A stretch of DNA of 64,000 nt from Raillietiella orientalis (taxonomy: Eukaryota), in assembly GCA_036172245.1 (NCBI GenBank), contig JAYWIR010000031.1, positions 186,001 through 250,000 on the forward strand. The letters are read 5' to 3'. How positions within the stretch are numbered: position 1 is the first letter of the stretch; each line of letters opens with the position of its first letter. The position numbers were made by a program, and so were the translations under genes. A model generated the notes under the pieces. It made no database searches. It was not told the origin of the DNA and saw only the letters and a program-made list of their open reading frames with translations. Of the stretch, positions 20,200 through 56,629 are shown piece after piece.

Positions 20200-21100
20200 A
20201 ACTTTAATCTTCGAATGGTGCAATTGACCTCGTTGGGTTTCAAGAAGGGAACTGGGAACAGAATATGAGGGGGGGAAATCTATGACAGCAGCTTCGGTGC
20301 GAGCAGTAAAGTGTCCGTCGACATAGTTTCGTTTTGGTAAACGAGCTTTAAGGTTCATGACGTCACCGGCATGCTTCTCCCAAAGTCTGGAAAGCCAAAA
20401 TGATGGAAACGACGCAGCAGTGTTCATTTCACCTCCCCTCCTCTCGAAGACGAAGGCGCCTCGGGTGGGGGGAAGGGAGAGGGAAGTCGTCCAACAGCCG
20501 CGTAAGGCATTGCAAAATTTCGCAGCACAGGAAGGCCGCAAAAGGACACGCCAACTGCTCTAAACGGAGGAATCCCAAGAAGCGGTGGGATAGCTGAAAA
20601 CATCCCTTTGACTTTTTTGCACGTATCGTTGCAGCTGTACCCGGGTTTGACGTGGCACATCGGTGCGATGCTCGCGCAGTCGGTTTATTGGGGCACCATT
20701 CGAAAAAAAAAAAAAAAAATCCTCGGCAAGGAATCTCTCCCCGGGCGCTCCTAAGCAACCGGCGCTCCGCAGCTCGCTAGACCGAGGGGGAGCACTCTGT
20801 CCGCTCAGGGTGGCACGCAGGGAAACGGCGTGCAACCGGGTTCCACGCCGGGACCGTCGCCAGGAGTCCGGGGTTCCATCCACCCTATCGAAAATGGGGG
20901 CACGCGGGTCCGAGGTCCTCACCGTGGCATCCATCCTGGCGATGGCGACAGCCGGCGATTCACCGAGAACGCCCGGAGCCGATCGGCGAGTGACGCGGAG
21001 ATCGAAGTAACCGCCTCCTCCCGGAGAGGGGACGAGCGACGACGCGACCTCCGGCGCTGCGAGGAGGGGGAGGGAGGGAGGGGGAAAGGAGTCCCAGAAG
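20200..21100 (-). mobile_element. Gypsy RT-RNase H relic straddling the AT/GC boundary
   Basis: ORF 20560-21114: PSPGGGGYFDLRV..GVLGESPAVAIARMD (cf. TPxGxYEFxVMPFGLxNAPAxFQRxMD); ORF 20185-20541: WLSRL, KRNYVDGHFTARTEAAV (cf. FRxYLxGxxFTxxTDHxAL). Confidence 0.55.
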
Positions 21101-21249
21101 ACTTCCATCTCCACGCTCGCTCTCTCACCCGCCTTGGTTTTCTTCCGACCTCCGCTCCGTTTTAGAGGACGCCATGAAATCGAGGTCGCAGGGCTGCACG
21201 TCTCTGTCCGGGACCGGTGCGACCCTTCTGACCACCTCGACCCCGTTAC

Positions 21250-21720
21250 ACCTCAGCGAAGTGTTTCCAGCTGCGCGCGGTGTTCCCGAGGAACGCACCT
21301 TGCTGATGCGACCCATCGGGAGCGGCCCTCCCCGATTTCGGCGGCCTCATTTTCCCTTTCCCGCCATCCTTTCCTCCCTCCCCCTCTTCGCCCACAAGGT
21401 GAAAAAGAAGGCTTCCGTCTTGCCTGGGCAGGAGGAGAAGAATGAGAAGGACAAGGTGGTTTTCGCGAGACCACGGAGCGGGCCGGCGAGCGTCGTAGAA
21501 GCTGCTCTGCCAGCCCGACGCATGCACGTTCCTTTTGCTTGCGCTCAGGGGAAAGGGGGGGACCCGCGTGAGGCGACCCACGCCAACGTGGAGAAGGCAC
21601 CCGTCCCTCGGCAGCACACGAGCGCACGGGATGCCCGGGTAGCCTCGGGCTCTCTTCCAGTTCTGATTCGCCCCATCGCATCACGGTGGGCGCCTCCGCT
21701 GTCCGGTTGTGGAGAGGCGC
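21250..21720 (+). mobile_element. Gypsy pre-RT/RT N-terminal relic (GC-rich)
   Basis: One frame of ORF 21174: LSEVFPAARGVPEER..RRPH, RSGPASVV, RMHVPF (cf. RMCVDY), ASGSLPVLI, PPLSG. Confidence 0.45.
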
Positions 21721-21939
21721 GTTCGGGACACGAGTCTGCCTTGGCACAGCTTCCTGTAACGGCGCCCATCCCAGAAAGATGGACGCGAGGCGGGCGAGAG
21801 CGCCCGAAAGAGGTAGAGGGGGGAGCAGAGTCGCAGGGCTTCCGGCACTCGCCCTCGCGCGGATTCGGGGGTGGATGGGGAGGCCTCGGGTCAGCGGTCT
21901 GTTCCTTCCCGGTGCGAGGAGCAGCTCCAGGAAAGGCGC

Positions 21940-23100
21940 GGGATGAAAGTCCGCCCCAGTGAGCAACGCTCGGAGGGAGTGCTGCCCACGTTCCTCTCCC
22001 AGCGGGTGATGGCGCGTCGGGCGTCCGCGTGCGCCATCGCGGCCCCGCCCCGCCCATCAGGACGGCGTTCCGCCACCACGGCCACGTGGTTTTCGGTGCC
22101 TCAATCGCTCTCCACGGTGAATGCGGGGGCGACGAATCCTCCCCCCTCCCCTTCGGCTGCACGCCCGCGGTGGGTCAGGCGACTCTCCTCGCCCGGAAGC
22201 GGCAGACCACCCCCGAGACCAGCTTCCTTCCCGTCCCCTGGTGGGGATGCTGCGGTCGGGCCAGAGGCGTCTCACGAAGAGGATCCCTCCCTGCCACAGC
22301 GCTCAAGAAGCCTTTAGAGTGGTGTCTGCGTGACCCTCCTCGAGAAGAAAGGAGGCGGAGGCTGCGCACGAGGCCTCGGACCGGGGGCGTGTGGCGGCAC
22401 CTTGCGGGGAGAGCCCTCACCCTCCGCCGACCCCGAACCACGGCGGGGGGGGGGAGCAGAGCGGAAAAGCTGGGAGGAAAGGGCCACCGGCGGCGGTGCG
22501 CGGACAGAGGTCGAGACCCCGCAGGCCGTGCTGCGGCAGGCAAGGTCGTTCGTTACTCTTGCCGGTAGCGCTGCCGGCGGGAAAGGCGGGCCCTCTGCCA
22601 CCACCATCGGAGAGGGCGACAGGCGCGTCCTTCTGGGCGGAAGGTCGCCCATCGGGGCGGCGCCGGACCAGAGAAGGGTCTGCCGCCGAGGGGGCAAGAT
22701 AGGTCCTCGTGACTGGGGAGACGCGATGCGACCTCGGGAGGGAGGAAGACTCCGCAGGCATTCCTCCTGGCTCCGCCAAGGTCGCGCAAGGGGTGACCTT
22801 GGCGCAAGCGCGCGATCCGGAGTCCCTGGGTCGCGACCGAGGCGACGCCCCCGCGGGGGTTTCCCTCACGAGATCGCGATGGGTGCGCGGTGGCGTTGTT
22901 TGCTGCCACGGCAACGGTGGGAAGCGGCGGCTGGTGGGAGATGCGGGGAGGACGGCGCCTGGATCCAGGACTTGCGCGTAGCAGCTCCCGACGCTTTGCG
23001 GGTCCTCTGGCCGTGAGCGAAGAAGCCTGTGAAGAAGCAGTAGCCGTCCAGGTGACACGAGGGAATCGTGTCCGGACGGCCATCACTCCGATCCGTTTCC
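21940..23100 (+). mobile_element. Gypsy RT-RNase H relic (GC-rich)
   Basis: GMKVRPS, ATWFSV, ETSFLPVPWWG, SLPAT, EERRRRLR, TPQAVLRQARSFVTLAG (cf. PKTVKQVRSFLGLAG), TRCDLG, WVRGGVVC, VTRGN..TAITPIR, in gypsy order. Confidence 0.6.
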
Positions 23101-24047
23101 TAGCAACCGAGGAGAGGAGAAGGGAGGACGGCGAGGTGATCCCGGCGCGCTCTCCTGGAGGAGAAGCGCTGGAAAGGTCGGCAGGACGAGCCTCTCCCGG
23201 CAGCGAGCGGGAACACGAGCTGCCGGAGCAACGACCTCTGGGCTCCTAGCAACAGCGGGACCGGATGGATCCGCTCCCGTTCCCGGGAGTCCCTCTCGGG
23301 AGTTCTTCTTCGTCCTCCACCTTCTCTCCTCTCTCCCCCGTCTCCGTCGGTGCGTTCGCGGGAAGCCGCCAAGTCAGCCGGGACGAGGTCTCTGCCGCTG
23401 CTGCTGCTGCTCTTGCTCGCAGCGCGGGTGGCGGCGTGGGAGGGGAAACCAGCGAGGGGCGGGCGGGCTCAGGGAAGAGGCGGTAGCGGAGAAGAGAGCG
23501 GATGGAGGGAAAGGCGAAAGAGGGTCCAGGGGAAGGCGGGAAGAGTCCAGCAGGGGACGTTCCTTCCCCCCTCTTTCCTGCCCCCCTCCGAGGCCGCGCA
23601 CGATGGGTGCTCGGTCCGGGAAGGCGACGGCAGGCTGCAGCGGCACTTCCGCTCTTGCAGCCTCCCCTCGAGCGCGCGCACTCCGAAGTTTCCATCCTTC
23701 CTTCCTTCCCCTGTTTCCCTATGGAGTGCGTGCCAGCCCTGAAGACGGGGGGCGGCCTCTCCGCGATCTCCGGAGGAGGAGGAAGGGGGCATCTGCGCGC
23801 GGTCCATGCGGAGACACGCGCAGGATCCCGGGAAACGGGATGCCTCTCCGGAGGGGAAGGAAGCGTTGCCCTGCGGCTGCGATCTCTGTCCGTCGCAAGC
23901 GCCCGTGTCGGTCGGTGGACGGGCGAAGGGGAAGCCATTTCGAAAGCGAAAGTGCGACCGGCCGCATTGTTGGACGACGACGTGGAGCGCCGTCTGCCGC
24001 TCTCTGCCCGCACTCGCGGGAGGCACGCATTGCCTCTTGCTCCTGTT

Positions 24048-24064
24048 CACGTGCGCTTCGCATG
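24048..24064. promoter_or_regulatory. Consensus ChoRE (CACGTG-cgctt-CGCATG)
   Basis: Matches CAYGNG-N5-CNCRTG; ~3.5 kb upstream of the PPP1R3 ATG in TE-free sequence. Confidence 0.4.
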
Positions 24065-24382
24065 CCGACGTCTTTTTTGTAAGGTGTGCATCTGCGCATT
24101 TGCCTGGTTCTTTGTGGCAGAGATCTGTATCAGCTCTCAGGCCGCGGTCTCCCAGTCACACTAGGGCCACCTTGGAATCCTCGCACTTCTCGTAGAAGCA
24201 CGCGGAGAGCTCCTTTTTTCCACTGCTCGAACTTTCACCGCTCGCCTCATGAGTTCTTTCGTGGGAACATTCGTTCGCATGTGGGAGCTCCTGGTCATCT
24301 CATGAATTAAAAACGTCGGAACGTTCCCAACAAGTGTTCGGGCTCCGACTTTTGCTTCACGCGGTGTTCCCTCCCCTCTCTT

Positions 24383-24400
24383 CCCCCCCCCCCCCCCCCC
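24383..24400. repeat. C18 homopolymer (G-quadruplex-capable on the minus strand)
   Basis: Direct reading. Confidence 0.85.
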
Positions 24401-25673
24401 TCAGAATCCGTATCGTGTTTTGTTTTCCGCCTCAGCCGGGAGATGGAGCACGTGCAGTCCGACGAAACGAGCCTCGTCGACCTCGAACTAGCATGACGAA
24501 GCTTACGTTTTGAGCACGTGTAATGGGAATGCGCGTGCGTGGTGGTCGTACCAAATGGACGAGCGGCTCCGCCTTCCAGCAGCGTTTCCGCTTCGTTCGT
24601 GCGATCGCGGCCACGTGCAGTTGGCCCGCGACCTGCACGGGTCACCCCTAGCAGCAGTCGCCCCCGGGAACACACCCCTGTCCCTTCCCGCGGGAAACGC
24701 TTCGCCGTCGTGTCCATCGTTGTCTTCGCGTCTGCCACCTGGGGCCCCACTAACGTCGAGGGTGCCCCCGGTCACAACGCCGGGCGTTTCCCCCAGACCG
24801 AGCACCGCGGAACTCCCCCCCCCTCCCCCACGGTCCCTTGCACGAGTGGTTTGGGCACCGCAGCCTTTTCCCGAGCTTGCGATGCGTCGCTGTCCAAAGC
24901 TGGACATTCCGTCAGCGGATGAAAAAGGCGCCTGAGATCAACCCCGTCGCGATGGGGGGTGAACCGTGGAGCGACAGGTGCCCCTTTCGGCGGATCTACT
25001 GGAGGAAAAAAGACCCCAGGAAGAGTAGGGAATCCGTTTCCGGACCTTCGAGATGTGGCGAAAGAGTTCCGCAAGCGCCCACAGCGAGCACACTCGCGGG
25101 TCGGAACGCCCTCTCCCGGATGACCAAGGCGCGGCTGGAACGGATCCGCTGAGGCTTTGCCAAGTACCCCTGGGTGTTTCAAGCACACCCGACTCGTCGT
25201 CGTCGTTGTTTCGGCTGCAACTCGGGGGAGGGGGAGGGAGGGAGAATCGCCACCACCGAGGTCGTCGTGGACGAGTGGCCTGCGACCTGTTGGCGTCGCA
25301 GGGAGGAAGGGGGGGGGAGAGCGTTGCCGGAAAGTTTTCTTCCCTTCTTGCGTGCGTCCTCTTTTCTTTCCGGTGGACGTCGAAATTCGCGCGGGAAGAA
25401 AGGCGCGTTCTCTCCCATCACCACCTCAAGGTCCGCTGCAGCCTCCCGTCTCCAAGGTTCCCCTATTTACGTCAGCTGCCTCCTCTCACAAGCACGCCCG
25501 CACTCACGCACGCACAGACACACGAAGGAGCAGGTATCCTCTGACATCGCCAGAGGGCTTCCCCGCATTGCTGCCCGCGTCCCCCTAATCGGAAAGGGGG
25601 TCGTTTTCTCCCGCGAGAACCTTGGTACGCGCGTTCCGGGGGACGTCGGGAGTGCGCAGACGCCCCAGAGAGG

Positions 25674-25690
25674 GTGCGCGCGCGCGCGCG
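25674..25690. repeat. Alternating purine-pyrimidine run containing (CG)7, Z-DNA-prone
   Basis: gtgcgcgcgcgcgcgcg read directly. Confidence 0.8.
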
Positions 25691-26626
25691 GAGCCGCGCC
25701 GCGGCGGCGCAGCGCGGCGGGCAAAGTGCCGCCCTCTCCTGGCCGCCGCGAGAGGCTCGCGGCCGCGGAGACGCGGCAGTGCGCTGCGATCCCGCGGGGA
25801 GGTTGGCTGAATGCAGCCATGGGCTCCTCCTTCCCGGTAGGCTCCGGCGCGGGATCCACTGACGCCACCGCCGCCGCAGCTTCCTGAACGACCTCCTCCT
25901 CCGGGCACGTGAGTTTGCAAGCAGTCCGCCGCGCCGTGTTTCGCCAGAGCACGCGTTGAGGGAACGTCTCGTGGAATGCGTCCTGGTGTGGGGAAGGTGC
26001 GCTCGCGCCCTTCTCTGGGGTGGATTTTTTTTTTTTTTCTTTCCGTCCCCGGGAGAGTCTCGGCATGCGTGTGTGTCTCGGGGGCCGAGTGGATGGGCCG
26101 GGTGGGTTACGAGTGTCCGTCGTCCGGTGTCCCGCGACGTTCCTCCATGGATCCGGGGAAGGGAGGGCTGAAAAAGAAAAAAAAGAAGAAGGATCGTGAA
26201 CCAGTGGAGAGTGACGTCATCGGTGGTCTCTCTGCGAGGTCAAGGAGTGAGAGAGGTCCGGCTTTTCCTGGAGGAAAGGTCGAGTCTCGAAAGGTCACTT
26301 CGTGCTCGAATTCATGGAAAAAGTGCGTCCGACGCGATGAAGTGAAGCGCCTCCCGCGAAGTCGCTTAACTTGGAGGAGTCCCGTGAGACACTGGGCTGG
26401 CAGAGTCCGCTGGTGGGGGTGGACGGGTGTGGTGTGGGGAGCTTTCACCCTTCACGTGGGTTGGTTACGTCCGGACACTTCGTGGGAACGAGCCAGCAAG
26501 CAGCGGACAGCCGCCGGCTTGGCGGCGCGACCGCGGGCACTCCCCTTCCTCCCCATCCCTGCTTTTTCCCGGTTCCCCTTCCATTGTCCCGTGTCCTTTT
26601 CCGCAGCAACGAGAGAAGGAGACGTG

Positions 26627-26634
26627 TATAAATA
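26627..26634 (+). promoter_or_regulatory. Candidate TATA box (TATAAATA) of the PPP1R3 gene
   Basis: Perfect TATA sequence standing out in ~70% GC DNA, ~940 bp upstream of the ATG; TGACGTCA at 26212-26219 and several CACGTG sites nearby. Confidence 0.5.
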
Positions 26635-27221
26635 CTCCCCGTTGGACGCGTTGCGCGCAAACACCGCGCCCTCTGCCGTTCGCTGCGAGCGGGCTCCGTG
26701 CCGTAAAAACAGATCGCCCTCAACGACCTTCCCAAGGGAAGGCGCAGCGTGCGCGAGGGAGGATAACGGAGAGTTTTCGCTCCCGGAAAAGGAAGAAAAA
26801 AAAAAAAAAAAAGGGAGAAGGGAAGGAGAGTACGGTAGCGACAGCGGACCGGGGGTGTAGCGCGGGTGTGTGCGTGCGCGCGAGCCAGTGGCGGTGGCAG
26901 CGCAGCAGCAGCCTGGGACGGGGACGATGGGCGGCGGTCCGCACGTGCGACGCGTGCATCGTCGGGTGCTCACACGGGCCGCATGGGGCGTGTGGGTGGA
27001 TGGGTGCGGATCGCCGTCGTCGGACGCCGCGCGCGAGGCAGAACCTACCGGAGACGGCGGCTTGGGCCAGGAGAGAGCGGTTGGGTGGTGGTTCCTCGAG
27101 CAGGCACGTGCGGACCCTTCGCGCAGGGGTGGTTGGTGGTGCTCCCTCTTCTTCCCCTCCCCCCTCCTTCCCTTCTGATCCTCCACTCAGGAAACCGGCC
27201 CGACAACGAGGCACTCCCGTT

Positions 27222-27238
27222 CACGTGATGGGCACGTG
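27222..27238. promoter_or_regulatory. Perfect carbohydrate response element (CACGTG-atggg-CACGTG)
   Basis: Two canonical E-boxes exactly 5 bp apart, 330 bp upstream of the ATG of a glycogen-targeting subunit. Confidence 0.7.
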
Positions 27239-27566
27239 CTGTGCGCGGTTTCGGGCGTCGCGCTCTGCTGCGCGCTTGTGCCGTTGCGGCCGACGCCGCT
27301 ACCCACGCGTTGCTCGGAGAGCGCCCGCACTCGCATCCCGCGCGGCTGCGCGTACGGGTTGGTGTGGTCGGTCGGTCGTCTCGCGCGGGTGGCGCTGGCC
27401 CCCCACTCCCCCCGACGGCGAGACGGGATCGATGCGGACGAATGCGCCTCTGCGGCGGGGAGGAACCCACACGAGGAAGAGGGGTGGGAAGGTGGAACAG
27501 CAGCACACACACGCCCTGGCGTGTATCGCCCTTAGTCGTGAAACCACTCATGTGTTCTTTCAGGCG

Positions 27567-28615
27567 ATGACATGCACCCTGAGGTGACACGAGCTGGGCA
27601 GCGTGCCCTACTTCGCGAGAGGTACCTGAGCCCCTGCTGCTGCGCATAGGAAAAGGTAGGTCTCGCCATCCCCCTTCCTCCCCTATCCCCCAGCGTCCCC
27701 CCTCTCCACCGGCCCCGTGCCCCCTTTTTCCCTCCCTTGAGAGTGGTGGACCCTCTCCCGTGCAGTGCCCCCAGGTGTTCCAGCCCGATCGGCATGCCTG
27801 TGAACGTGCAACTGTTCCATCCTCCTCCTACGCTGCCGCACCAGCGGACCATGCTGGACGAAGGGTTCCTTGACCGCTTCGCCGTCCTGGACACCCTGCC
27901 GACCCGCCGCCAGCTCCCCTTCGTGCTGAAGACGCCACAGGCTAAGCCCGGCCTGATCACCCTCGGCATCAGGAGCTACTCCCTGCTTGGTCCCTGCAGC
28001 ACCGGCAGCGGCGGCGGGAATGGGAGCATCAGCGCCTGCTGCATCCGGCAGAAGAGCAAGCGGCGCGTCTCGTTCGCCGACGAGAGAGGGCTGCAGCTGA
28101 CCCAGGTCAAGTGGATGCCCGGGTCTGACGACCGCAAGGCGGACGGCAGGCGGCAGCAGCAGCAGCAGCAGCAGCACCACGCTTCTCCACGGCTCTGGAA
28201 GTGGACGGGCGCCTTCCGAATGCTTGTTCCCAATCCGACCAGCACAGTCCAGCTGACCGAAGTCCGCATCAGTGACGCGCTGACGGGTTGCGTCCAGGTG
28301 CGCAACCTGGCCTACGAGAAGTCCGTGTGCGTCAGGTGCACCTTCGACGGGTGGCGCTCCTACGAAGACACCTACTGCGAGTACTCGTGCCCCGCCCAGC
28401 TGGACGGCTTCGACCTCTTCCGGTTCTCCGTACTAATCCCCCGCAACCGCGTCGTCCAGCGCGTCGAGTTCTGCGTGCGCTTCTGCTGCGAGCGCCAGGA
28501 ATTCTGGGACAACAACGGGAACAAGAACTTCGTCATCGAGAGGTCGGACGAGAGGCAGAGCAAGCAGCAGCGGAACCAGTCCAGGATGCCCGAAGAGTTC
28601 GACCACTACTGGTAA
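27567..28615 (+). CDS. PPP1R3C: Protein phosphatase 1 glycogen-targeting regulatory subunit (PPP1R3B/C-like; RVxF + CBM21), 288 aa, 2 coding exons
   Basis: Exon 27567-27583 (MTCTL, phase 2), intron 27584-27765, exon 27766-28615. Motifs MPVNV, KRRVSFADERGLQLTQVK (PP1 docking), GCVQVRNLAYEKSVCVRCTFDGW (glycogen binding), VEFCVRF and FWDNNGNKNF (substrate binding). The symbol gives the closest vertebrate type, not proven orthology. Confidence 0.95.
28154..28174 (+). repeat. (CAG)7 polyglutamine tract inside the PPP1R3 CDS
   Basis: Direct reading; lies between RVxF and CBM21. Confidence 0.9.
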
Positions 28616-28849
28616 AGCCGTGCTCGGCGACCTCGTTTGCCCCGCTTCCGTCCCCGTTGTCTTCCCACTAGAGCGGTCTGGAGAGAAAGCTCGGAGCTAG
28701 TGGGAGGAGGGGACGGACAGAGAACACAACTTCCCTCCGCTCCTCTTCCTCCTCCTCCTGTAACTTGGTGGTGGTGCCCAAGGGCACATCGTATCACTTG
28801 GTCACGACAAGCTCCCTGGAGCACGTTTGCATGTCTTTTGTTTTCGTTG

Positions 28850-28855
28850 AATAAA
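28850..28855 (+). terminator. Polyadenylation signal of the PPP1R3 gene
   Basis: AATAAA ~235 nt after the stop, flanked by T/GT-rich sequence; TE relic begins just beyond. Confidence 0.65.
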
Positions 28856-29009
28856 CGGAAGGATTTTTGTTGGCACTAGAGCAGGGACTTCGGCCGCCCA
28901 CTCCTTCTTTTTCGCCGCGAGCGAACCGCTTCCAGGGAGCTGCCCGACTGGCACACCCGCCGCCTGCTGACTTTGGAGGACAGAGACTTTGCGCGGCGGC
29001 GGCGGCGGC

Positions 29010-31070: not shown

Positions 31071-31354
31071 ACAGCTCGGAGGGCGGCGTACCTTGCGTCT
31101 GTGACCGCCGAGCTGGTCCTCTCCTCCCCCTGTAAACGTCCTGGGGCCGCCACTCCGCGCTGGGGAAGCGGCTCCGGCAAGGCAGCGTCCATTCCAGGGG
31201 GTGGCCCTCAGGGGCTACGAGGGGGAGGAAGGTTCAAGCAAGGTGCCGCCCGCTGACTCTTCTCCCTCCTCCTCGCTGGGGTGCCTGCTGGTCAGCATCA
31301 GCGCAACCGCGGGTCGCAGAACCGGCAGCGACCCCGGTCACGGGACGGACACCG

Positions 31355-43320: not shown

Positions 43321-43470
43321 GAATGGACCGCACGTAGGGTCAAATTCCAATTCCGGCCACTCGTCGGGGGAGTGTCCGGGGGTTTGCGGCTTCCACCAGT
43401 GCCGCCGCGCCGAAACCAACCAGGGTCATCTTGCGGGGGGGACTCGAGACTCCGGCATCGACCCTTCCCC

Positions 43471-43525
43471 GGCGGGACTCGAACCCGCGACGTTCGGTGC
43501 CACCGCAGCCACACGGCCGCGCCGC
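43471..43525 (-). other. Degenerate tRNA-like element (perfect T-arm / B-box), possible tRNA-derived SINE head
   Basis: Minus strand GCGGG-TTCGAGT-CCCGC stem-loop with an A-box-like TGGCTGCGGTGG upstream; no room for an anticodon arm. Confidence 0.45.
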
Positions 43526-44091: not shown

Positions 44092-44156
44092 GCGGCGGCC
44101 GTGTGGCCAGGGCGTCCACGCGCGTGGCCGCTGGCGTGGCGGGTTCGAACGCCTCC
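44092..44156 (+). other. Second degenerate tRNA-like copy, inverted relative to 43471-43525
   Basis: Shares GCGGCCGTGTGGC (13 nt) and GCGGGTTCGA (10 nt) in the same order. Confidence 0.4.
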
Positions 44157-45049
44157 TCGAGGGCGCCAAGCCGGACGCTCCTTCGACCAGCAGCATCCAG
44201 GTCTGGCTCCCCTTTCCCACCTCCCATCCGGCCTCGCCTCGCGTGCATGGCTGCACGTGGAGGCCCTACCATCCAGTCAAAGCGCGAGGTAGGACGACAG
44301 TCCTCGAGCGCTTGGGGGGACCGAAAAGTAGGGAAAAAGACCTGCGACGACGAGCATCTTTCAGTCCCACCAGGGCGTCTCCCCTAGCAACAGGGGTCGC
44401 TGTGCCTTGGCAGTCAGGTGCGCTTCGAGTGATGGGGAAGGGAGAGAACGAGACACCCCGTGCGTTCGGCGGACGCGGTCGGACCCGCTGCCCTCCCTCC
44501 TCCTCCACCCGAGCTCGGAATCTCTTAGGGGGGCTGAAAGACGCAAAGTTCCGCACGGCGTGGGTGCCTGTATGCGATCAGAGGAGCGAGGAGGAGAGCG
44601 CCCATCTGCACCCTCTCGGCGAGGCTGCCGGCAGCAGCCGGTCATCCCTTTCCAGAGTGACCGGAAAAGGGCATGAGGAAGGAGAAGGAGGAGGGAGAAA
44701 GAGGGACGGGGAGGGTGAACGAGAGAATCTCGGGGTGGCAGCAGCCTCCGCGAGCCAGAGAAAGGGCGAGTCGGCAGCAGTTCGTTCAGTCACTCTCAGA
44801 TAAATAGATGGACCAAAGGGAAGAGAGCGAGAAAGCAGATGGAAGGTGTGGGAAGGAGATGCAAGGCCTTCGCGGGTCAACGAGCTGCTGCGCTCGGAGA
44901 CCCGCCGCCGCCGCCGCCTCCACCCCGAGATCATCGAACTTCTTACGTCGGCTTGTCTTTCCTTCCCCTTTCCTCCTTCCCCCCACTTTGGTGGGGCGGG
45001 ATGGGGGGGGGGGGGCACAATCCCGACGCTTCGAGCTTCATCTCGAGCG

Positions 45050-47910
45050 CACGTCGCCGCAGCTTTGATCACGGGTTTCGAGGGAGGGGAGAAGAGAGAG
45101 GAGGCAGGATGACCGGAGATGAGGTTGCAGCTTTTCCCTGGGGAGGTGGGAATGCCCTGGTTGCGCGCGACCTTCGACCCTCGGAAGGGGGAGCGGAGAG
45201 CAACGGAGCCGCGGTCCCTGCGGAGCAGATTCTCCCGAAGAAGTTTTTTTTTTTTCCTCCACCCTCCCCTCCCGAGGAGCAGGAGGAGCGGCGCCAAACT
45301 TCCGCTTCCGGGTTCCCGAAGAATCCGGTGGAGAAGGGATTTTCGAGGCCCCCTGCGATCCGTGGCGCGCCCTGTTGCCAGCTCGCCACCCTCCGCGGCA
45401 GGCGAGACAGCCGAAGGAGCGACCGACCCGTCGCTTCTCCGGACGACAGCAGCGACCTCCCGAGCGGGGAGCCCTCCAGGGAAAGTCTCCCGGCGCGTTT
45501 CCCGGAAGGCACCTGTGGGGAAAGGGCAAAAAGGGGAAGAGGGGACGGAGACCAGGATGAAGGGACAGGACGATGCCTCAGGGCGCGCGCCCCCTCAGCA
45601 ACGCGACCTCCGAGCCAGATGAGAAGAAGAGGGCCGTCCCCAGTGCCTGGGGTGGTTTCTGAAAGCACAGCAGCCCCGTCCGAGGCGACATCTCCCGACC
45701 AAGGGACTCCGGACACGGGTTACGGAAGACAGTGGCCTGAGGTCACCTCCGCGGGGACGAATCTCGTGGTCAAGGACGCGCCGCCGTTTTAGGCAGCAGC
45801 CAGGCTAAAAGAAGTTGCGAGATTTCAGCGGCTTTTGACTGGTATCCCTGCCTTTATGGAAGGCAGGACCTCCGACGAGGAAACCCGAGGAAAAAGGGAA
45901 CCCCCCGAGTCAAAGGACTGGCATCCGACCGGCTACGTGCACCTGGGGAAGGTCCACGGGGCGTATGAACTCCAAAGGGCCACGTGGACCACAAGACCGC
46001 CTCCAGAATCCTGCCGCCTGAGGTAAAGGAGTCTCCGCCCTCCCAGCAGGCGTCCTCCCGAAGAGCGAGACCACGTCTTCCTGGTTTCGAGAGGGTGTCC
46101 ATCCTCGTAGGACCACGATCCCCGGCCCAGGGTCCCGAGACAGAGGGGACAGGAGGGGGAGGGAAGTACAGAGCCAGGTCAGATACTCCCTGCTTGAGAG
46201 GGGAAGATGCCGCAAGATTTGGGAAGTGATTCGGGATCAGCCCCCGAGGGAAGACAGGGAAGTCGAGGAAGGGCGGATGGAATGGCAGAACCCACTCCCA
46301 GGAAGATCTGTGCACCGTTCCGGTTCTGGTGGATGCCGGGATGCGTACCCAGGAACGATCCGCCAAGCACTCCGGAGGGTGACGAACAGGAAATCCGGGC
46401 AGGTGGCCTCGGGCAGTCGACGTCCTTTTCCTCCTCTTCCTCATTCCTCCCTTCCTTCTTCCCTGCTTCCTTCCTTCCTCCTCTTTCTTTCCTTCTCCTC
46501 CTCCCCTTCTCTCCTGTCTGCTTGCTTTCTTTCCATGATCATCGACGACGACCGCGGTGAATGAGCTTTGACAGCCAGGGCGCCCCGAGGCGTTGCTTGC
46601 CCTCGGCTAGGGGGCTGCCTGCTCTGGAACGGTCACCCGGCAGCACCAAGATGTGTCATCCCCCCGTCCCGATTCGACTGCCGCCGACTCCAGGAGAGGA
46701 GTTCTTGGGCGGGAGTGGCGCGTGCCGCAAAAGGGCTGCGGGCGTCGGATGAAGCCTGCGACGGGAGATCCCTTCAGACGAGACGGTGAGCCTCAGGGAG
46801 CGGCAGCATCCCGGGGCGGGGAGCTGCGCGTAACCCGGTGGAAGGAAGGCGGTGGGAACGGGGAGCTCGTGGCAGTCTCCACGGAGGAACGGAAGGGGGA
46901 GGAGCTTCGGGAGGGTGAGAGGTCCTGCCAGCCGTCCTTCGAGATGAAAGTGGGAGAGCGAAGCTTCTCCTGCACTCGCGGAGGGGACGGAGAGACTCGG
47001 CTGAGGGGCGCGCCAGAGCTCTGCCCTTGGCCGCCCTTCCCGCAAAGTCAGGGAGGCGCTCCTGACTCTTTCCGGGAACTCGCGGGAAGGGAGGCTTCTC
47101 TTCCCGCGGCCCAGGGCGTGAGGGGGAGGTACCAGGCGCGCGCGAGGTTCCGCAGGATCCGCGCTCACAGTTTCCCCAGCCAGGAAGGTGCTGGGACGCT
47201 CGAAGAGCCGGGAACGCTCTCCAAGGCCGCAGGGGCCGCTGCTCTTCCCGAACATTCCGCGTCACGAGACTCCCCGAACACCCGACGCGCGCGGCCCGCT
47301 GACCGCGGTGGGGAGGCAAACGGAGAAGCGCCCTCCTGACCCGCGGGCCCCGGGGGTGCCTCTGGAGAACAGTTCGCTTTCGCGCGCGGGGTCTTCAACT
47401 CCGGATGAGGGTCGACCCCCTCTTGGTGGCTTTTCCCGCCCTCCCGTGGACGCTTCAGAAGGTTTTCTTCGAGGTCTTCTCGGTCTCGGAGGAGGGAGAC
47501 TTTGGGGTGGGGTGGACTCGGGCTCATAAAGGAGAGGACGTGCTCTGGAGCAGGCGCTCCCTCGCCCAGAGCACTCGGCGTGTGCCACGTGCCGCCGAGA
47601 GCTCCGGACGATAAAAGGGAGAGGAAGAAGAGGATCCTCGAGAGCACCGCCGCTGTTCAGGGGTCCCTCCGATAACACCCACATCTCCCCCTCTGCAGAC
47701 CGACCCGCGTCTCCGGGTTTCCCTTGACCCGTCCCTTGCCACTGATCCCGACGCGCATGCCCCCTGGCGCTCCATGCAGGTGACCTATGTCTCGACTCCC
47801 GGAAACCTTTCTCGGATCAACGAGGGAAGCCCCGAAAGAGAGTGCCCAGGCGACCTGGAGAGCGAGCTTACCGGATCCTACGAGTCGCCGCCCCCCCTCC
47901 TGAGGGGCGT
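45050..47910 (+). mobile_element. Near-complete decayed gypsy pol (protease-RT-RNase H-integrase)
   Basis: VAAALITG, VGMPWLR, TGYVHL..GAYEL, MEWQNP..SVHRS..ALRRVTNRK, AASR..GELVAV, APDSFR, PLLVAFPALPW..QKVFFEVF, SDN, TYVSTPG..INEGSPER, ESPPPLLRG, all in PR-RT-RH-INT order. Confidence 0.65.
46425..46532 (+). repeat. Polypyrimidine (CCT/CCTT-like) tract
   Basis: ~105 nt almost purely C/T, interrupting the gypsy relic between RT thumb and RNase H. Confidence 0.8.
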
Positions 47911-48179
47911 CTCGGATGAGGAAGGACTCAACCTTTTGGGCGACCTATCCCCTCGCCATTTGGAGAAGGAAGGTGCTTCCTACCTTCGAACTCTGAGGCC
48001 TCTCCTGGCCGCTTCCAGGGGCAGAGCCGCCCCCTGAGGCATGAAGGAGCCGGCGAGGGGGCCCACATGCTCGGGAGGAGCGAGCTCGGCCCTCTGCTCC
48101 TCGCAGCCGCCCTTTCTGCTCCCCTTTCTGCTTCCCTTTCCCGCAGCCGGACATCGCGTCTCCTCCTCCCTTGTCGCGA

Positions 48180-49960
48180 AGGTGCTTCTGCAGGCAGCCT
48201 GCTCCCGTCCCCCTGCGTATGGGGGAGCTCCCGTCCCCCTTGACGCGGTGGGAGGTGAAATCCCGACGTCCCGCATTTCCGATGGACGGGAGCTCCCCCC
48301 TCCGACACCAAGAGAGCTGGCTCTCTTGGTGTCTCTTGCTCTCTTGCTCTCTTGGTCTTGCATCCCTCCGCCAGAGGGACAACGAGGGAGTCCCCGTCAC
48401 CCTTCCGGCCCAGGACTTCTAGAAGGTTCGGCCGAGTTCCTCGGCAATGTCCCTCCGAGAGGAAGGGATGACTCTTGGAAGTGCCTCTGCTCCAAGAGGC
48501 GGCCCGGAGGTCGCCGCCTCTTTCCTTTTTCAGATAGAGGAGTGGCTGAGGAGCCCGATGCGGTGTGTTTGCGGCCGCGATAGTCGGAGCACCCACTTCC
48601 AGTGCCACGCTAATTGCGCCACGCCATTTCCTTTCCGAGGTTGAGGAACACGCAGAGCGGGACGTCACCCCTGAGGGAGTGCCGGAGTCAGGAAGCAGAA
48701 AAATAAGGAAAATGGGGGAAAGTAAGGGGTTGCCGGCTGCTTCCGCAGACCGTGCCCTCCTTCGCCCCTTCCTCTGGCGGCGAGATCCCATTTTGCCGCG
48801 TCCCTCATCAACGCGGAGGTGGCGCAAGGGACATTGTACGCACGGGGGTCGCAGGGGAGGCCACAGCCTTCTCGCAACCACGAAGGAAGGTGGAAGCCCT
48901 CCGCGCGCGGAGCGTAGGCACCTCCGGGACACCTTCGCTGCGAGGCAGCCGCCCCCGGGGGCTCGCTGCGATCGCCAGAGGAGCGGGAGCGGAAACACTT
49001 CTTCCGGTTGCTCGAGAAACCCCAGCGCGCGAAGCCACTGCTCCCTCCCTCTCGAGGGAGGCAGCCATCCACGAGGAGAGGATAGACCATGCGGAAGATC
49101 CGCCCGCCCAGAGGAGCGGCCCTGTATTGCGGACGCGAAGGGTTTCTGCGTCAATCCGCAGGCCCCTGGGGCTTCGTACGTGACTCTGGCTGCGGAGGAC
49201 TCCCGCCCGCCCCTCCCACAGGCAGCTTTCGCTCCTCTCCTGTAGTGAGAAAGAAGGGGATGCTTCGTCGGATCCCTCCTGGGAGACCGTCCCTAGGTCG
49301 TGGGAGGTTCGAACCAACCTGGGGTCGGTCGCGGAGACTGCCTCCGGCGGGCATGCGTGGTAGCTCGCGGGGGCCTTCTCGGAGGGAACCTGCAAGGCTC
49401 CAGCCGGTCTAGGCTGCGAGCCAGCGGGAACGCCGCTCCCCAGCAACCGACCACTTGCCCGTCCCAGAAGGATGTCGCGCGCAGGAAGACTCCAGTGGCG
49501 CACCCAGACTGCGGTTGTCTGGCAGGCCGTCTTGAGCATGGGGACGCCGCATCCTTTGGCGGGGTCCTCGAGGCGAACCTTCCACCTTGCAGCACCGCAT
49601 GGGACCCACCCATCTTGCATCGTGGGGCGGGAGGGAATCGAAGGGCCGGAAGGGAGGTCAGCGGGAGTGCTCCTGAGTCGGTGCCGGTCTTCTGCACTGG
49701 CGTTGCATCTGCTCCAGCTCCAGGAGGTCGAGACCATCCCGACGCGGAGCACGAGCCCTTCAAGCGGACCCGGGATCTCTGCGTTCACTAGCGGACTTCC
49801 CCCCAGGAGGTCTCTGGTCCGCTTCTTCACACAACCGAAGGGGAGGAGCAAAGAGCAGGATGCGGAGGATGGGGACCACGAAGCCTCGGCTCCTTCCGTC
49901 AGGAGAACCTCGCCATCCTGGAATGGGCCAAGAGCTTTCTGGATACAGCTGGACCACGCC
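48180..49960 (+). mobile_element. Gypsy RNase H end-integrase (HHCC, core, GPY/F) relic
   Basis: LPSPLTRWEVKSRRPAFPM..SWLS, LWRRDPILPRPSSTR..HGGRRGGHSLLATT, CIADAKGF, SPSWNGP. Confidence 0.55.
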
Positions 49961-50329
49961 CTTCGCGAGGGGGGAGGAAGTCCCCAAACGGTGCTCCGAG
50001 ATGCTTAAAGTTCCAAAGTGCAGAGATCCCCAAGCGGGTTCCGTCTGGCCCGCCCAGTCCACGCCGCGCCAATAGGACGGGCGGACGATTCGTCCCGTTT
50101 GCGCGCGCGCCAGCGCCGCGCCGCGAGGTCAACTCGAAACCCTCGAGCGACGCTTCTGGAGTTGACATGGGGAGGAGGATGAGGGGATCGTCAGCACGGG
50201 CCGGCACGGCAGGAGGCACGCTTGGCACGAGTTCAGGAGGGCACCAACTAGGAGCAGGCGACCGAGGTGCCGCCCCGCCTCCAGGAGACGCGCTCCAAAG
50301 AAAGAAACGGTCGGCGCAGTGCGGAAAGC

Positions 50330-50790
50330 TCCGGTCTCCACGCCGAGACCTTCGGCAACCAGGAGTCTCCTCTCCTGCCGTGACCTTCTGGCGATATTTG
50401 GGGAATGACCCACTGTGTCGACGCCCCCCGAGGCGTTCCTGCCAAGCTTCGAGGCGTTCCGAGACAAGGAGAAGGGACTGTTCATCGCGAGGTCTGCTCA
50501 CAAGTGGGGGGAGTCTGGAACGCCGAGGAATCTGGGAAAAAGCGAAAGTTCAGCCCTACGCATGAGCACCTGGTTCAGCTCCGCCTCCGGTACACCAAGG
50601 TCATAAAGACGGAAGATGTGTCCCATTCCGGAGCCAACGCCCATGAGCGGACGAAACCTCGGGCGGAAGCTGCCCTCCTCCTCCTCCTCGCTTCGATCCC
50701 CAGAAAGTGCCACCTTACGAGTCATCCCGGAAAATCCCTCTCACGAAGGAATCTCTGCATCCCTCCAACCCATCTGGAATCCCTCCACCT
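50330..50790 (+). mobile_element. Gypsy RNase H relic
   Basis: ORF 50405: CVDAPRGVPAKL, VHREVCS, KRKFSPTHEHL, KVIKTED, CHLTSHPGKSLSR, LCIP. Confidence 0.55.
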
Positions 50791-52199
50791 GTCACGGATT
50801 GCCGTAGGTCCCGTTCAGGACCTACTCGCGTGCAGGCGAGCTGGACCCTTCGCGGCAGTCCGGGGAATCCCATCTTTGTCTGCGGAGACTCCCGCAGTCC
50901 TGCTGTCCTCTTCGCGAGCGATCCCTCCTTCGAGGTCCTCAAAACTGCGGCGCCCCAGGAACTCGCCTTAAAAAAGCCCGAGAGTCCAGCAGAGATGCCC
51001 GGTCGCTCAAATGACCTGACACCTCTGCTGAGATGCAGCAAAGACTGGCGGCGCCTTCTTTCCTGACGGTAGCCAAAGCGTGGACGAAGGAGTGAAGCGC
51101 TTAGAAAAGAGAGGGTGGCACTGCACGTGGCAACTATAGGTCCTAGGCCCTCTGTGAACGGCTCCAGAAAAGCCTAGCAGAGAGGACGGCTCCTGCAACT
51201 TGCCCGACGGTCTTAGGAGAGGTGCGGAAAAGCCACCACCCTATCTCCAGGTGGTAGCGGCCCCGCGGTGAGTACGCTTCAAAGGGAGGAAAAACAGGAC
51301 TGGAAAGACTCGATCTCTTGCTCGACCCACGCCTCCTGCTCAGCGACTTTGAACTCCGTGACCGATGGGGAAGAACGGAAGGAGATCGAGAGATCGGTCG
51401 AATGCTTCCCTCTTCCTCCCCCTTCTCATGACCCCACTATTCCTCCCCTCCTGCTCCACTCGACCGCTTCCTCCTTTACTCCACCACTATTGCTATTGAA
51501 GGGGGCTTCAACCTTTACTCCTACTCTTCCTACTCCACTCATCCACCTACTCCTGCTCGACTTTCTACCCCACTGCGCTCTTTTAGCTGCTTCTGCATTC
51601 CTCCGCAAAACCTCAGAGGCACGAGAAACGATGGAGGCTGCAAGAGAGGATAGGAGCTTCTCCTTCCACGAAAACGGAGGAAAATGATGGACCCAGGAGA
51701 AAGGCAGGCAAGGGGACTCCTTAAGGAACACGGATGGCGCATGGACGCCGGAAGTGCCTCGCGCCGGGCACATGCACGCACGCCGCTCCCGCCAGAGGAT
51801 TCCGCCGCAGGAAGTCCCACTGGGAGGAGGGAAGGAGAACTCTAAGGTCGCCTCGGGGCGATGCGCAACGGACTCCCTCGACTCCTGACAGGATCCTCGC
51901 CTCGCTTGGGAAGGGGAGAACATGGCGGGCGCGTCGGACCCGTCCGGGCAATCTCAGAGCGAGGAAGGCTCTAGAAACGCAGCTCTCGACCTGGGTGGGC
52001 AGGGTTCGAGGGGCCCCCTTTTTCTGCTCGATTCTCAGGCGACCCAGAGGCGTACCGCAGCGTTTTGGAATGTCTGACACCCCTCACTGAGGTGCCCCCC
52101 CCCTGCGGCCCGTCCCACCGATCTGCCCGCAGACTCTCCGAACCGTGTCCCTCGTCACCGATCGACGATACCCACGGAAATGGCCCTCCTGACCAGGGA

Positions 52200-52400
52200 G
52201 GAAGGAGGGACAGGGGCATCCGGCTCCCGGAGAGCGAGTGCGCCAATCCGCGATGACGTCAGGAGAAGATACGAGACCGGGTGGAAGGGGACGCGGCTGC
52301 TCCTCCAGGAAAGCGTTCTTCCTGAGAGATCGTTTTCCTGACCTGCGGCTGTCCTCGCCCCCGGGAGTATGGGATTTTTCAGCGCTGCTCCCGGACGAAG
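52200..52400 (+). mobile_element. Gypsy RT N-terminal fragment
   Basis: GIRLPESECANP (cf. GIIxPSxSEWASP), SSPPGVWDFSALL. Confidence 0.4.
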
Positions 52401-53039
52401 GCAGGCAACAGCGCGCGTCCCGAAACGCGGAAGGAGGATCCGCCAGAGAGCACCGCCGACTCCGTGCGAGGCTTTCGAGCCGCCCTCGCTGCAGCTTCCC
52501 CCCACACCATGGACCACCTCGGTCGTCCGCCACCCTCGCCTTGCTACACGCCTCCGTTCAGGTCCCTTGAGTGACGTGGCTCCACTGCCTCGGGTGCTTC
52601 CTCTTGGAGATCGAAAGTTGCCTCCCGCCGCAGCATTCCCTGCAGAGCGAGTGGGAGCCCTGGAGGTCCACCTCTCCTACCCTGCCGGGACTCCTTCCCG
52701 GAGGTAAGAAGTAAGATAGGAGAAGGGCAGCTGCCTCGCAGGCGGTCCCTTTGGCATGGCACGAAAGGGGAGGAGCCTGTAGGGCTTCTCGGAGAGGGAC
52801 AGTCTCCCGTCTCTCCCTCTCTCCCACCGCTCTCCGTGCGCACCTGGAGGCCTCTGTCGGGCTCTCCTTGACCGGCTCACTCTTTGCGCCTGCCTATAGA
52901 GCGCTTCCCGTCCATCTCCCGCTCGGAGGGCAAGGGGCAAGGACTGGATAGGATGACGTCGAGAGTCGGCTGCTCTCCAGGATGGCTCCTGGTCCTTCGT
53001 GCCCCAGAAGGGAGCAGACCCTTCTGGGGCACGAAGGGG

Positions 53040-54500
53040 AAGGGCAACCATGTGCTCGAATCTACCACCGTGCTGCCGTCTCCCTGGGCTCCCCGTTCCG
53101 AGGAAGGCAAGGACCTTCCTCCTCCAGCAGCCCAAAAATTCGGAGCCGCGTCAGATGGCCCTTTTTTTCTTCCCCCCGGGGGTTTCCCTGGACACTGGTC
53201 CGTTGTCGGAGGGAGGTACCGGTTTCCAGAGGGGTCCTGAGGTAGAGTGTCCGGTAGCGCTCACGCAGACCGGGCGGACGCTTCCGGAGCGAAGTACCCT
53301 GAATCTGCCTCCCGGCAACTTCCCGGAGGGGAATGGAGGGGTCCTCCCCTGACCCAGGAAAGCCCAGCCTCTCTTGTGTGGCTTCTGGATCGACTGGTTT
53401 AGACGACTGGCCGGGTCGGGCCAGATCGTTCCCAGGGATGCTGGATCCGGAGACGCGCGGCGGCATCCCGCTCGAGGCAAGGACGAGGGTGTGTCCGGGA
53501 GCGCGACGCCCCCTGGATCCAACCTGCATGCAGGCCCTTACCTCAGACGCAGCCGGCAGTGCCCCGGCTGGCGCCCCGGAGGGATAGCGCGCGCTGGAGG
53601 CGCATCGCCGGCCAGAGTGCGCACGCTTGCGCTGCCGCCGGAGGAGTGGTGGTTGCCATGGTTTCTCCACCGGCCGCCGCCACGATAGGGAGGGAGGGAG
53701 GGCGTCCGGAACAACAAGGGGGGGGAGTAAAACACGCCGGGCCCCTTCCGAGTCCTGGGGCTACTTCTCCTGCTCTGAGCAGCCCAAGCACCCGCATCTC
53801 CTCTCAGTCTCCGCTTGACGGTCCCTCAGAAGGGCGCCTCCGGGTAATGCAGCGATCTCGGTGGAATTCAGCCTCCCGCCCTGTCCAACTCCAGAGGCAG
53901 CCCTCAGGCGAGGCGAAGGTCAGCAGCCTCACCCTGCCGCCTGAATTCCCAGCGCACTCGAAGGCGAGCGGCCCCCGGACCCAGAGTGAGAGATCAGCTG
54001 GCGCTACGGCTCTGTGAAGAGGAAAGGGAAGGAAGGGGATACGGTAACGGTCCCGAAGTAAAAAGGGGGTGCCCTCTGACTGTTTCCCCCTGGCTTAGGC
54101 GCCATCTTGCCTTCCCTTCCCCCTCCCCCATAGGCTCTCTTCTGGGTCGAGGAAAATCCACGGTGCAGAAGGGCGTCGAGAGGAGCCCAGAGACCTCTGT
54201 AAGGAACTCCCTCGCGTCCCCGAGAGGGGGTGAGGAGGAAGCCACCCCCTCTCGGGGTTCCGCACTTTCCCACGAGGCTGCCCTTTCTGGTGGGGCCGAG
54301 GTGGACCCTTCATCCCTCAAGCCCGTCGTCAATGGCGATGGCTCGGAGTGACCCTCCGCCACGCAGAGTCTGGCACTCCAGCTTCCCCGCTCTTCCTTCC
54401 AGGGTCCGTGAGGAGCTCGGAGGCTGGAAAAGGGCTCAGACCGGCCTGCAGGGAGCTCCTCGGGCGCGAGGCACTCCCAGGTCGCTCACGGTGGGGTGCA
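53040..54500 (+). mobile_element. Gypsy RT-RNase H-integrase zinc-finger relic
   Basis: PSPWAP, GRYRFP, GLDDW (cf. YLDDI), GIPLEARTRVC, TSPALSSP..LDGPSEG, SRPVQLQRQPSGEAKVS, GKSTVQKGVER, FPALPSRVRE. Confidence 0.6.
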
Positions 54501-55556
54501 AGGCGAGGAAGGAGAGCCGAGAGACAGCACATAGACCCGGGACGACCCGCGGGCTAATACGCAGAGCGGGACCGACGAGAAAATGGCAGGAACGTGGCGA
54601 GGAGGAGGAGGGGGGGGATTTCGGATGCGGTTGTCCGCGCTACCTCCGTCTCCTCGACAACAGGGCCTTGCGAAGTCGTAGATGCGCGCTGGACCCCGCC
54701 GTCGCGTGGTGAGTAGCCGCCCATCGGTCGCCACGGACCGGTTCCGCGTCGCCAGGGAGGCGGGGAGCCCTTCTTTCCCCTCCGCTTTCTCCTACGAAGC
54801 TTCCCTTGAAAGCGCAGAGGGCTTGTGGGGAGGGACGGTTTAACCGCGCCGGCGGCTGACCTCGCGGGGAGTCGGAACGTCGGCACTTCCCCCGCGAGAT
54901 ACCACGATCCCCCATCCCGCCCCTGTCCCCGAGAGCGCACCCCAGCGAGCACCCCGAGCAGAGAGGCCCGCCGAAGCAGAAAGCAAAAGGGGACCAGGCG
55001 GAGCGCGGAACGCACCTCCATGGCGACGGGCTTCCTTGCGACGCAGGACGGGTGCGGGCGCGCGCCCGAAAAGGGGAAGAGAGGCAAAGAAGCGGTTGTG
55101 GCGGTTGCCACGGCAGGCAGCCGCGAAGCAGCGAGCGCGAGAAGTGAAGCGAGCGTGGTGGTTGCTTTGGGAATTTCCTCCCCCACCCACCTCGCGTTTT
55201 CGCTTTTCATGGCTTTTTGCTTTTTGGCGTGTTGCGTTTCCCATTTTCCCCATCTCCTCACGGATTCGCGTTCACGAGCCGCTCGGTCCTCCACCTCTTG
55301 GCCCCTTCCCCCCTTTTTTTTTTTTTTTTTTTTTTCCGCTCTTATCCCAACACGAAACACGCTTCCTTCGGCGAGTGGCGCGTCCACCTTTCGAGTGACA
55401 ACTTCCTTCGACTGCGGTGTCGTGGCGCGTTTCAAAAGCCGTCGGCAAACCCCACCTTGTGCGGGTGTGCGTTTCCCGGAGAGACGCTTCTGACTGATTT
55501 TTCCCATGAACCACCCCAATGCAACATGACGGCGACTTTTTCTTCTTTTTCGGAAA

Positions 55557-55576
55557 AGAGAGAGAGAGAGAGAGAG
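55557..55576. repeat. (AG)10 microsatellite
   Basis: Direct reading. Confidence 0.9.
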
Positions 55577-56629
55577 GAAACCACTCTCGCGTGCACGCAC
55601 GTAAACACGTACGAATTCATCACCACATCATGCAGAGCAGGCGATTCTGGAACGGGAATGCGGCCGACCTGTGGTGAATAATCGCTCGGGAGGAATGAGG
55701 GCGGGTGAGAGCTCGCCAACCAATCTCGTGGGTATTTCGAGTTGCTTGGATACGCAGCTGGGAATGCAAAAAACGCAACCCCAACTGCGCGCATAAACAT
55801 CCCTCAAGAGCATCCATAAACACACACGCACATCGAGAGGGCTGTGGTGCTGCGGTGGGTAGTCACCGCACGTTTCCCAAGGCGACGGATTCGCAAAACT
55901 TGGTGCGACCAGAAGGAAACCACCACTTCTTCCTCGTAATTTGTGATTTCTTTCCATCTCACAAAGTGGCGCTCGTTTGCGACTCCTCCTGGCTCAAAAA
56001 TAGGAACGGCGTTGTGACAGGGAGATAGAAAACGAGAGAAATGATGTTGCAGGCATGCTTGCTTCGAGCGGCTTTAAGCTCTAGGCTACGAACGGCGAGG
56101 AAAATAATAAAAAGGAGCAGAATTGACTACGCTGCCCATCTCCGTGACTTCGGGTTCCGAAAAAGCGCGCCCCATGAATCACTACCGAAAACGCGTTTCC
56201 ACCGCAGCCATTCACCGAATCCGAAAGGAATGGGAACGCATCTCCCACATCCAAAGATCTTCTGAATGCGGAAACGTATTTTCCATGTCTCAGTGGAAAA
56301 TGGAACTCATCACTATTTATCAAGTCGGTGTCACCTGGTGCGAAAATCCATCGAAGCACCTTTGGAATTCTCCGAAGGCAATCCATCACGTGGTATTGCC
56401 AAATCTCCATCGACTTTCAAAGTGGCCGATTTGAAACACAGGAAAAGCGCAAAGGAAGGAAAGCTTTGGATTCGGTCTCGAAGAAATTCATGCGATCTGA
56501 AAAGTTGCGATGCACGTCGAGAGAGCAATGCAGGGCGACCGCGCGTGCGTGCTGGGCAATGAAACAACAGCGAGGAACTGGAAATTCCTCCGATTGCAGA
56601 GGCAACAGCACTCCATGATCACTTGAGAG

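Follow-up and report, generated by a model that had tools for sequence, protein, structure and literature searches.

A sharply bounded GC-rich block around a PPP1R3-like gene in Raillietiella orientalis, and a possible regional GC-biased origin

The origin of GC-rich domains has been argued mainly from vertebrates, in which CpG methylation, the content of transposable elements (TEs) and gene density are confounded with one another. In vertebrate H3-type isochores and in the GC-rich gene regions of birds, GC at third codon positions (GC3) lies above the GC content of the region, protein composition is shifted toward Gly, Ala, Arg and Pro (GARP), and the leading explanation is GC-biased gene conversion (gBGC). 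Here we describe a GC-rich block in a 64-kb stretch of DNA from Raillietiella orientalis (contig JAYWIR010000031.1, positions 186,001 to 250,000 of the forward strand; hereafter the window, numbered from its first letter). The block extends from 20,431 to 55,313, has 62.5% GC and surrounds a gene for a PPP1R3-like protein. It shows the same GC3-above-region pattern and the same GARP shift as the GC-rich isochores of vertebrates, but on a different scale: those isochores are gene-dense and extend over hundreds of kilobases, the length of the classical definition, whereas the block is 34.9 kb long and holds one gene. It also differs from vertebrate genomes in its surroundings, because the flanks of the block retain CpG (observed/expected ratio, o/e, 0.89), implying that this genome is not globally methylated in the vertebrate manner.

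A second system for comparison is the honeybee. As described in the part of the honeybee study drawn on here (PMC4406589), the strength of gBGC climbs with GC content, B being greater than 15 at GC values over 0.55, and GC is predicted to reach about 0.96 at equilibrium. The two cases are alike, as far as that part goes, in that GC-rich segments lie in an AT-rich background, coding and non-coding GC covary, CpG is not lost from the GC-rich parts, and a very strong fixation bias is inferred for the GC-richest regions. They differ in that CpG is in excess in the honeybee, whereas its o/e is about 0.9 in the block; in that the top GC bin of the honeybee (above 0.55) is exceeded by the block, with 0.60–0.71 over most of its 35 kb; and in that gBGC is a proposed driver only in our case. 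The honeybee, furthermore, is an arthropod, whereas the protein encoded in the block is nearest to chordate-dominated clusters of a protein atlas. An isochore-like structure is also described for Schistosoma mansoni, in the portion of that report used here (PMC5010904), and it represents, like the present locus, compositional heterogeneity in an invertebrate. Such heterogeneity is therefore already known; what is notable at the present, single locus is the amplitude, and its borders are sharp. In S. mansoni the amplitude is reportedly modest, whereas the block is reached by a step from about 0.41 to 0.65 GC within a few hundred bases.

On balance, we think it probable that the block is native host DNA: a small, sharply bounded and almost wholly non-coding mini-isochore around the PPP1R3-like gene, produced by a regional GC-biased process.

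Extent and borders of the block

Two-segment maximum likelihood placed the outer change-points at 20,431 (GC 0.41 to 0.65) and 55,313 (0.64 to 0.46), so that both edges lie within the window, and placed two inner change-points, at 34,643 and 41,503, on either side of a central dip. The flanks together have 41.3% GC. When the window was divided into 1-kb windows, 27 of the 34 between 21 and 55 kb had a GC content of at least 0.60, compared with none of the 28 elsewhere. Within the block, per-kilobase GC is 0.60–0.71 for most of 21–55 kb and falls to 0.49–0.52 at 38–41 kb. Per-kilobase values in the flanks are 0.30–0.49, with the exception of a patch at 13–14 kb (0.55). A previous sequence-only reading of this DNA had proposed a GC-rich domain at about 20.4–56 kb with a dip near 38–41 kb, and had reported 17, 20, 46 and 44 G+C in four sample lines of 60 bases; the counts were exact, and the domain and its dip were borne out. 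The same reading had pointed to another GC patch at 1–480, which is indeed present (60.2% GC, CpG o/e 0.86) and may be a promoter or the edge of a further GC-rich segment.

The dip divides the block into two similar parts. Sub-block A (20,431–37,000) has 64.4% GC and sub-block B (41,501–55,313) has 63.8%, and their dinucleotide signatures are close (dinucleotide distance, delta*, 43). Between them, GC is about 51% in the central dip (37,001–41,500), falling as low as 0.39–0.45 at 38.8–40.2 kb, and the dinucleotide signature of the dip is similar to that of the right flank (delta* 35).

At either border the GC content changes by way of an intermediate shoulder and with no hard step, within a few hundred bases. 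The left shoulder has a GC content of 0.55–0.56 at 20.4–20.8 kb, and the right shoulder 0.47–0.54 at 55.2–57.0 kb. Each edge also carries a homopolymer run on the forward strand. On the left, a run of 17 A (A17) occupies 20,703–20,719, and GC rises from about 0.55 to 0.69 immediately past it; on the right, a run of 22 T (T22) occupies 55,314–55,335, exactly on the change-point. The two runs are reverse complements of each other and face inward. The sequences beyond them showed no mutual homology in a repeat search and a blastn self-search. Because 32 homopolymer runs of at least nine bases are spread along the 64 kb of the window, or about one per 2 kb, the placement of these two at the edges may be coincidental.

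The embedded gene and its site classes

The gene within the block is intact and intronless, and occupies 27,851–28,615 on the forward strand, encoding 254 amino acids followed by a stop. It was recognized from an open frame at 27,650–28,612(+), which matches the Pfam family CBM_21 (E = 5.5e-26) and also CBM53. A relative with 86% identity (219/255), from another dataset, begins with MLDEGFLD at the same Met, and we therefore placed the coding sequence (CDS) at 27,851–28,615. Upstream of CBM_21 lies KRRVSFAD, an RVxF motif for docking of protein phosphatase 1 (PP1), which aligns to KKRVVFAD of PPP1R3C; the CBM_21 region itself matches the PDB structures of PPP1R3C, 3B and 3A (E values from 8e-19 to 3e-13). 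In the protein atlas, the protein falls among PPP1R3 clusters with scores of 0.97–0.98, the nearest of which are dominated by chordates and not by arthropods. Among named relatives, the closest is a PPP1R3B-like protein of a bryozoan (37% identity). A scan of metagenomes for a related locus found no relative. The protein shares with PPP1R3B, PPP1R3C and PPP1R3D a single coding exon in which a CBM_21 module comes after an RVxF motif, and differs from them in its divergence, being only 29–37% identical to all retrieved relatives other than the 86% one. Judged by these sequence features, the gene is an animal-type PPP1R3, the predicted glycogen-targeting subunit of PP1.

The base composition of this gene is strongly skewed at silent sites. 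GC at the first, second and third codon positions is 0.58, 0.45 and 0.90, and GC at 4-fold degenerate sites (GC4) is 0.87 (103/119). We set these values against those of two exons from the AT-rich flank. The DUF4517 exon (13,902–14,354, forward strand; Pfam E = 2.1e-16), which ends 13.5 kb upstream of the PPP1R3-like CDS, has a GC3 of 0.27 and a GC4 of 0.22 (12/54); the REEP-like (TB2/DP1/HVA22) exon (3,346–3,549, reverse strand; Pfam E = 9.3e-11) has a GC3 of 0.24 and a GC4 of 0.20 (4/20). For neither exon did a word-based search find homologues. In this comparison of one gene inside the block with two exons outside it, GC3 follows regional GC, as it does in isochores.

The shift is not confined to silent sites. 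Non-coding DNA adjoining the gene has a GC content of 0.64–0.65, and the encoded protein has a ratio of GARP residues to Phe, Tyr, Met, Ile, Asn and Lys (FYMINK) of 1.32. The corresponding ratio is 1.44 in the 86% relative and 0.41–1.06 in 15 other homologues (P0004–P0018), while two very distant matches, P0019 and P0020, have ratios of 1.60 and 1.78. Every site class is thus shifted toward GC, as is expected of a gBGC domain: through a regional process, the non-coding DNA, the synonymous sites and, to a lesser degree, the amino-acid composition have moved toward G+C. Because the 86% relative carries the same GC-type shift in its amino acids, the domain is probably older than the split from the species to which that relative belongs, and GC pressure at this locus, as read from protein composition, would be common to the two species.

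Non-coding DNA, repeats and base texture

Apart from this gene, the block is non-coding. We ran a frame-plot over the whole window, using 300-nt windows and a threshold of 0.27 for the spread of GC among codon phases. Only 14 windows reached the threshold, of which 13 lay on the PPP1R3-like gene and one at 35,281. The gene is thus the sole strongly coding segment, and the remaining 34 kb or so is non-coding. We also searched stop-to-stop frames against Pfam, taking frames of at least 120 amino acids across the whole window (192 frames at E≤0.001, 173 of them in 20,188–56,916) and frames of 60–119 amino acids in 20.0–56.5 kb (261 frames at E≤0.01). Only one of the resulting 434 frames of at least 60 amino acids in about 20.0–56.9 kb had a match, namely the PPP1R3-like frame. 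Long open frames were considered as further genes and rejected. Those of at least 150 amino acids number 106 in the block, compared with 104.5 ± 7.4 in 200 simulations of a local second-order Markov null, and the longest, at 454 amino acids, is set against a null mean of 568; the ten longest have flat GC across codon positions and are rich in Arg, Gly, Pro, Ala and Ser. A 261-amino-acid frame in the right flank (61,315–62,097, reverse strand) was dismissed as well: 10% of null simulations gave a frame as long, and its codon-position GC is flat. The lack of coding periodicity beyond one gene, together with the single Pfam match, also led us to reject an insert of bacterial or viral origin.

The sequence-only reading had taken the block to contain dead TEs that had drifted toward GC, with Gypsy motifs rewritten in Gly, Ala, Arg and Pro codons. 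According to this explanation, old copies of Ty3/Gypsy and other elements would have supplied the substrate of the domain. Our searches did not bear this out. None of the 434 frames matched reverse transcriptase (RT), RNase H, integrase, protease or gag families, and the Pfam scans of stop-to-stop frames detected no TE domain in the whole 64-kb window. Hallmark motifs did not exceed the null when the block was translated in six frames: the RT motif [YF][VILM]DD occurred 0 times (null 0.4 ± 0.6), CCHC 0 times (null 0.1), D[ST]GA twice (null 2.5) and HHCC once (null 1.4). A loose D..D..E spacing was found 43 times, compared with 34.1 ± 4.6, which we judged not to be meaningful. Long GARP-rich frames are as abundant as the composition null predicts, arising by chance when GC-rich non-coding DNA is translated, and this probably explains the impression of rewritten motifs.

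Repeats tell much the same story. The repeat search found no direct-repeat families or flanking long terminal repeats (LTRs), and a sensitive blastn self-comparison gave five small matches, four of which are near-perfect palindromes of 30–67 nt with 86–94% identity (16,139–16,204, 35,618–35,651, 48,304–48,333 and 52,994–53,037). The sole diverged dispersed repeat in the window is an ancient pair of about 114 bp, both copies of which lie within the block on the forward strand (30,661–30,773 and 32,358–32,467; 76% identity, with a score of 86 compared with a shuffled maximum of 35). Tandem repeats are confined to small arrays (eight rows, of which several overlap); no telomere-type repeats were found, and searches for Rfam families and tRNAs also gave none. 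The ancient pair could be a trace of old elements, the long A/T runs (A17, A17, A19 and T14) could be former poly(A) tails, and relics could have been eroded past recognition; set against the absence of domains, motifs and LTR-like repeats, however, these leave a TE origin of the block very improbable. Recognisable TEs are not part of the block.

We next consider CpG. The block contains 8.8 CpG per 100 bp and the flanks 3.8, and in this sense the abundance of CpG noted in the sequence-only reading is real; the o/e is 0.90 in the block and 0.89 in the flanks, however, and there is no special enrichment. The equality of the two ratios implies that CpG abundance simply tracks G+C content, and that CpG decay plays no part in the composition of the block. 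Clearly CpG-depleted stretches are limited to 2–4 kb (o/e 0.22) and 14–16 kb (0.51). The first (2,001–4,000) overlaps the REEP-like exon and the second (14,001–16,000) overlaps or adjoins the DUF4517 exon, and they look like the result of germline gene-body methylation in a mosaic-methylated genome, with CpG being retained in the block and in the intergenic flanks. CpG islands are defined by a GC content above 50%, a CpG o/e above 0.6 and a length over 200 bp, and stand out from a CpG-depleted background. The whole block has island-like values (GC 0.625, o/e 0.90), but so little CpG has been lost from the background that the concept does not discriminate at this locus.

This bears on the suggestion that the composition is itself selected, the block being an extensive unmethylated landscape with a regulatory or structural role, in which polypurine and G-quadruplex sequence abounds and which is kept GC-rich by its function. 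Its formal likeness to a CpG island would agree with this, and so would its tracts: the block has 21 G-quadruplex motifs (null 7.0) and 31 purine or pyrimidine tracts of at least 20 nt (null 0.5), and its commonest hexamers are GGGAGG, GGAGGA, GAGGAG and GGAAGG. The tract excess holds in the flanks too, however (12 tracts, null 0.03), as does the CpG o/e of about 0.9, and selection on the base composition of 35 kb of non-coding DNA is implausible. Over block and flanks together, the longest tract has 50 nt. We consider this the least probable of the explanations discussed here.

The block does have a dinucleotide texture of its own. The relative abundance of TpA is 0.34–0.36 in the block and 0.54–0.66 in the flanks, that of GA is 1.32–1.37 in the block, and delta* between the block and the left flank is 173–202. 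Tetranucleotide usage is correlated among the four segments of the block (r = 0.25–0.57), more so than among flank segments; those of the left flank have correlations of 0.04–0.26 among themselves and 0.04–0.33 with the block. A mosaic of AT-rich and GC-rich DNA of the RIP type, as in fungi, was rejected, since the AT-rich flank is depleted in TpA (0.66) rather than enriched, and carries animal-type genes.

The distance of the block from the left flank raises the question of whether they belong to one genome. An assembly chimera or contaminant, in which the block, or the whole sequence beyond about 20.4 kb, came from a GC-richer eukaryote and was joined to an AT-rich host, would account for the large delta*, for the location of the recognisable flank genes (REEP-like and DUF4517) exclusively to the left of the block, and for junctions at or near homopolymer runs. 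Yet the left-flank segments correlate as weakly with each other as with the block, and the signature test therefore does not discriminate. The CpG o/e, the excess of purine and pyrimidine tracts and the long homopolymer runs, which comprise all four bases, are common to the block and its flanks, which supports a single genome. Moreover, both edges have intermediate shoulders, the dip resembles the right flank, the embedded gene is of animal type, and a prokaryotic or viral source is ruled out by the frame analyses described above. We therefore regard a chimera as improbable.

Three further features of the flanks deserve mention. Directly upstream of the DUF4517 exon, a patch at 12,801–13,850 has 56.4% GC, a CpG o/e of 1.0, a run of 16 G at 13,100 and several overlapping long frames with flat codon-position GC; a promoter resembling a CpG island, or a first exon, is plausible here. 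The P53 DNA-binding domain is weakly matched at 582–773 on the reverse strand (E = 0.0091; 16.3 bits, with a curated cut-off of 27), which may mark an exon of a p53-family gene. A match to a Lin-28 zinc knuckle, also in the flanks and also below its curated cut-off, came from the same Pfam scan, of 146 frames.

A probable regional GC-biased process

What might have driven the shift toward GC? The best-documented process with such a footprint is gBGC, which we propose as the most likely driver here; it would have acted in a long-lived, recombination-active segment. It has been described, in the part of the source relied on, as widespread among animals (10.1101/184283). The sequence-only reading had also invoked a sharply bounded regional process of this kind, and that part of its mechanism agrees with the shift seen at 4-fold sites and in the protein; the dead TEs on which the process was supposed to have acted are not supported.

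Several observations weigh against this explanation. The GC4 of the gene is well above the GC content of the adjoining non-coding DNA (0.87 compared with 0.64), implying that one process acting uniformly over the region is not, at equilibrium, sufficient alone; the excess would fit a peak centred on the gene or its promoter, non-coding DNA that is not at equilibrium, is younger or is diluted by AT-rich insertions, or selection on codons. The dinucleotide texture of the block, with its low TpA, high GA and large distance from the left flank, would not be produced by a context-free change of weak to strong base pairs. Finally, the comparison of GC3 is one between a single gene inside the block and two exons outside.

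The second of these points agrees with an alternative in which the bias lies in mutation and not in fixation: a chromatin state, replication timing or form of repair specific to the segment would favour AT-to-GC mutation or curb GC-to-AT mutation. Such a bias would also shift every site class, and could have sharp borders. The depletion of TpA, the excess of GA/AG and the shared tetranucleotide usage fit a context-dependent process of this type at least as well as they fit gBGC. On its own, however, mutational bias should leave 4-fold sites and adjoining non-coding DNA with much the same GC, which is not what we found, and nearly everywhere in animals mutation is biased toward AT. We consider mutational bias unlikely but a serious rival, give it more weight than the other alternatives, and continue to favour a native mini-isochore formed by a regional GC-biased process.

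A broader proposition, which we advance only tentatively, is that an invertebrate-type genome carries stable mini-isochores with borders sharp to the kilobase, in which a GC bias linked to recombination or chromatin would bring silent sites to about 87% GC when an exon just 13.5 kb away has about 22%, and that this state would be conserved across species and would depend neither on DNA methylation nor on TEs.

For now, the block represents a single-locus, high-amplitude example of a known phenomenon. Its value lies in the simplicity of the setting: CpG decay driven by methylation does not come into play, there are no recognisable TEs, there is one gene, and the block is sharply bordered on both sides. 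If it is native and blocks like it recur in the genome, allele-frequency and recombination data could separate gBGC from mutation bias with few confounders. A genome with many such mini-isochores would be an unusually clean system for telling gBGC from mutational and methylation-based accounts of the origin of isochores.

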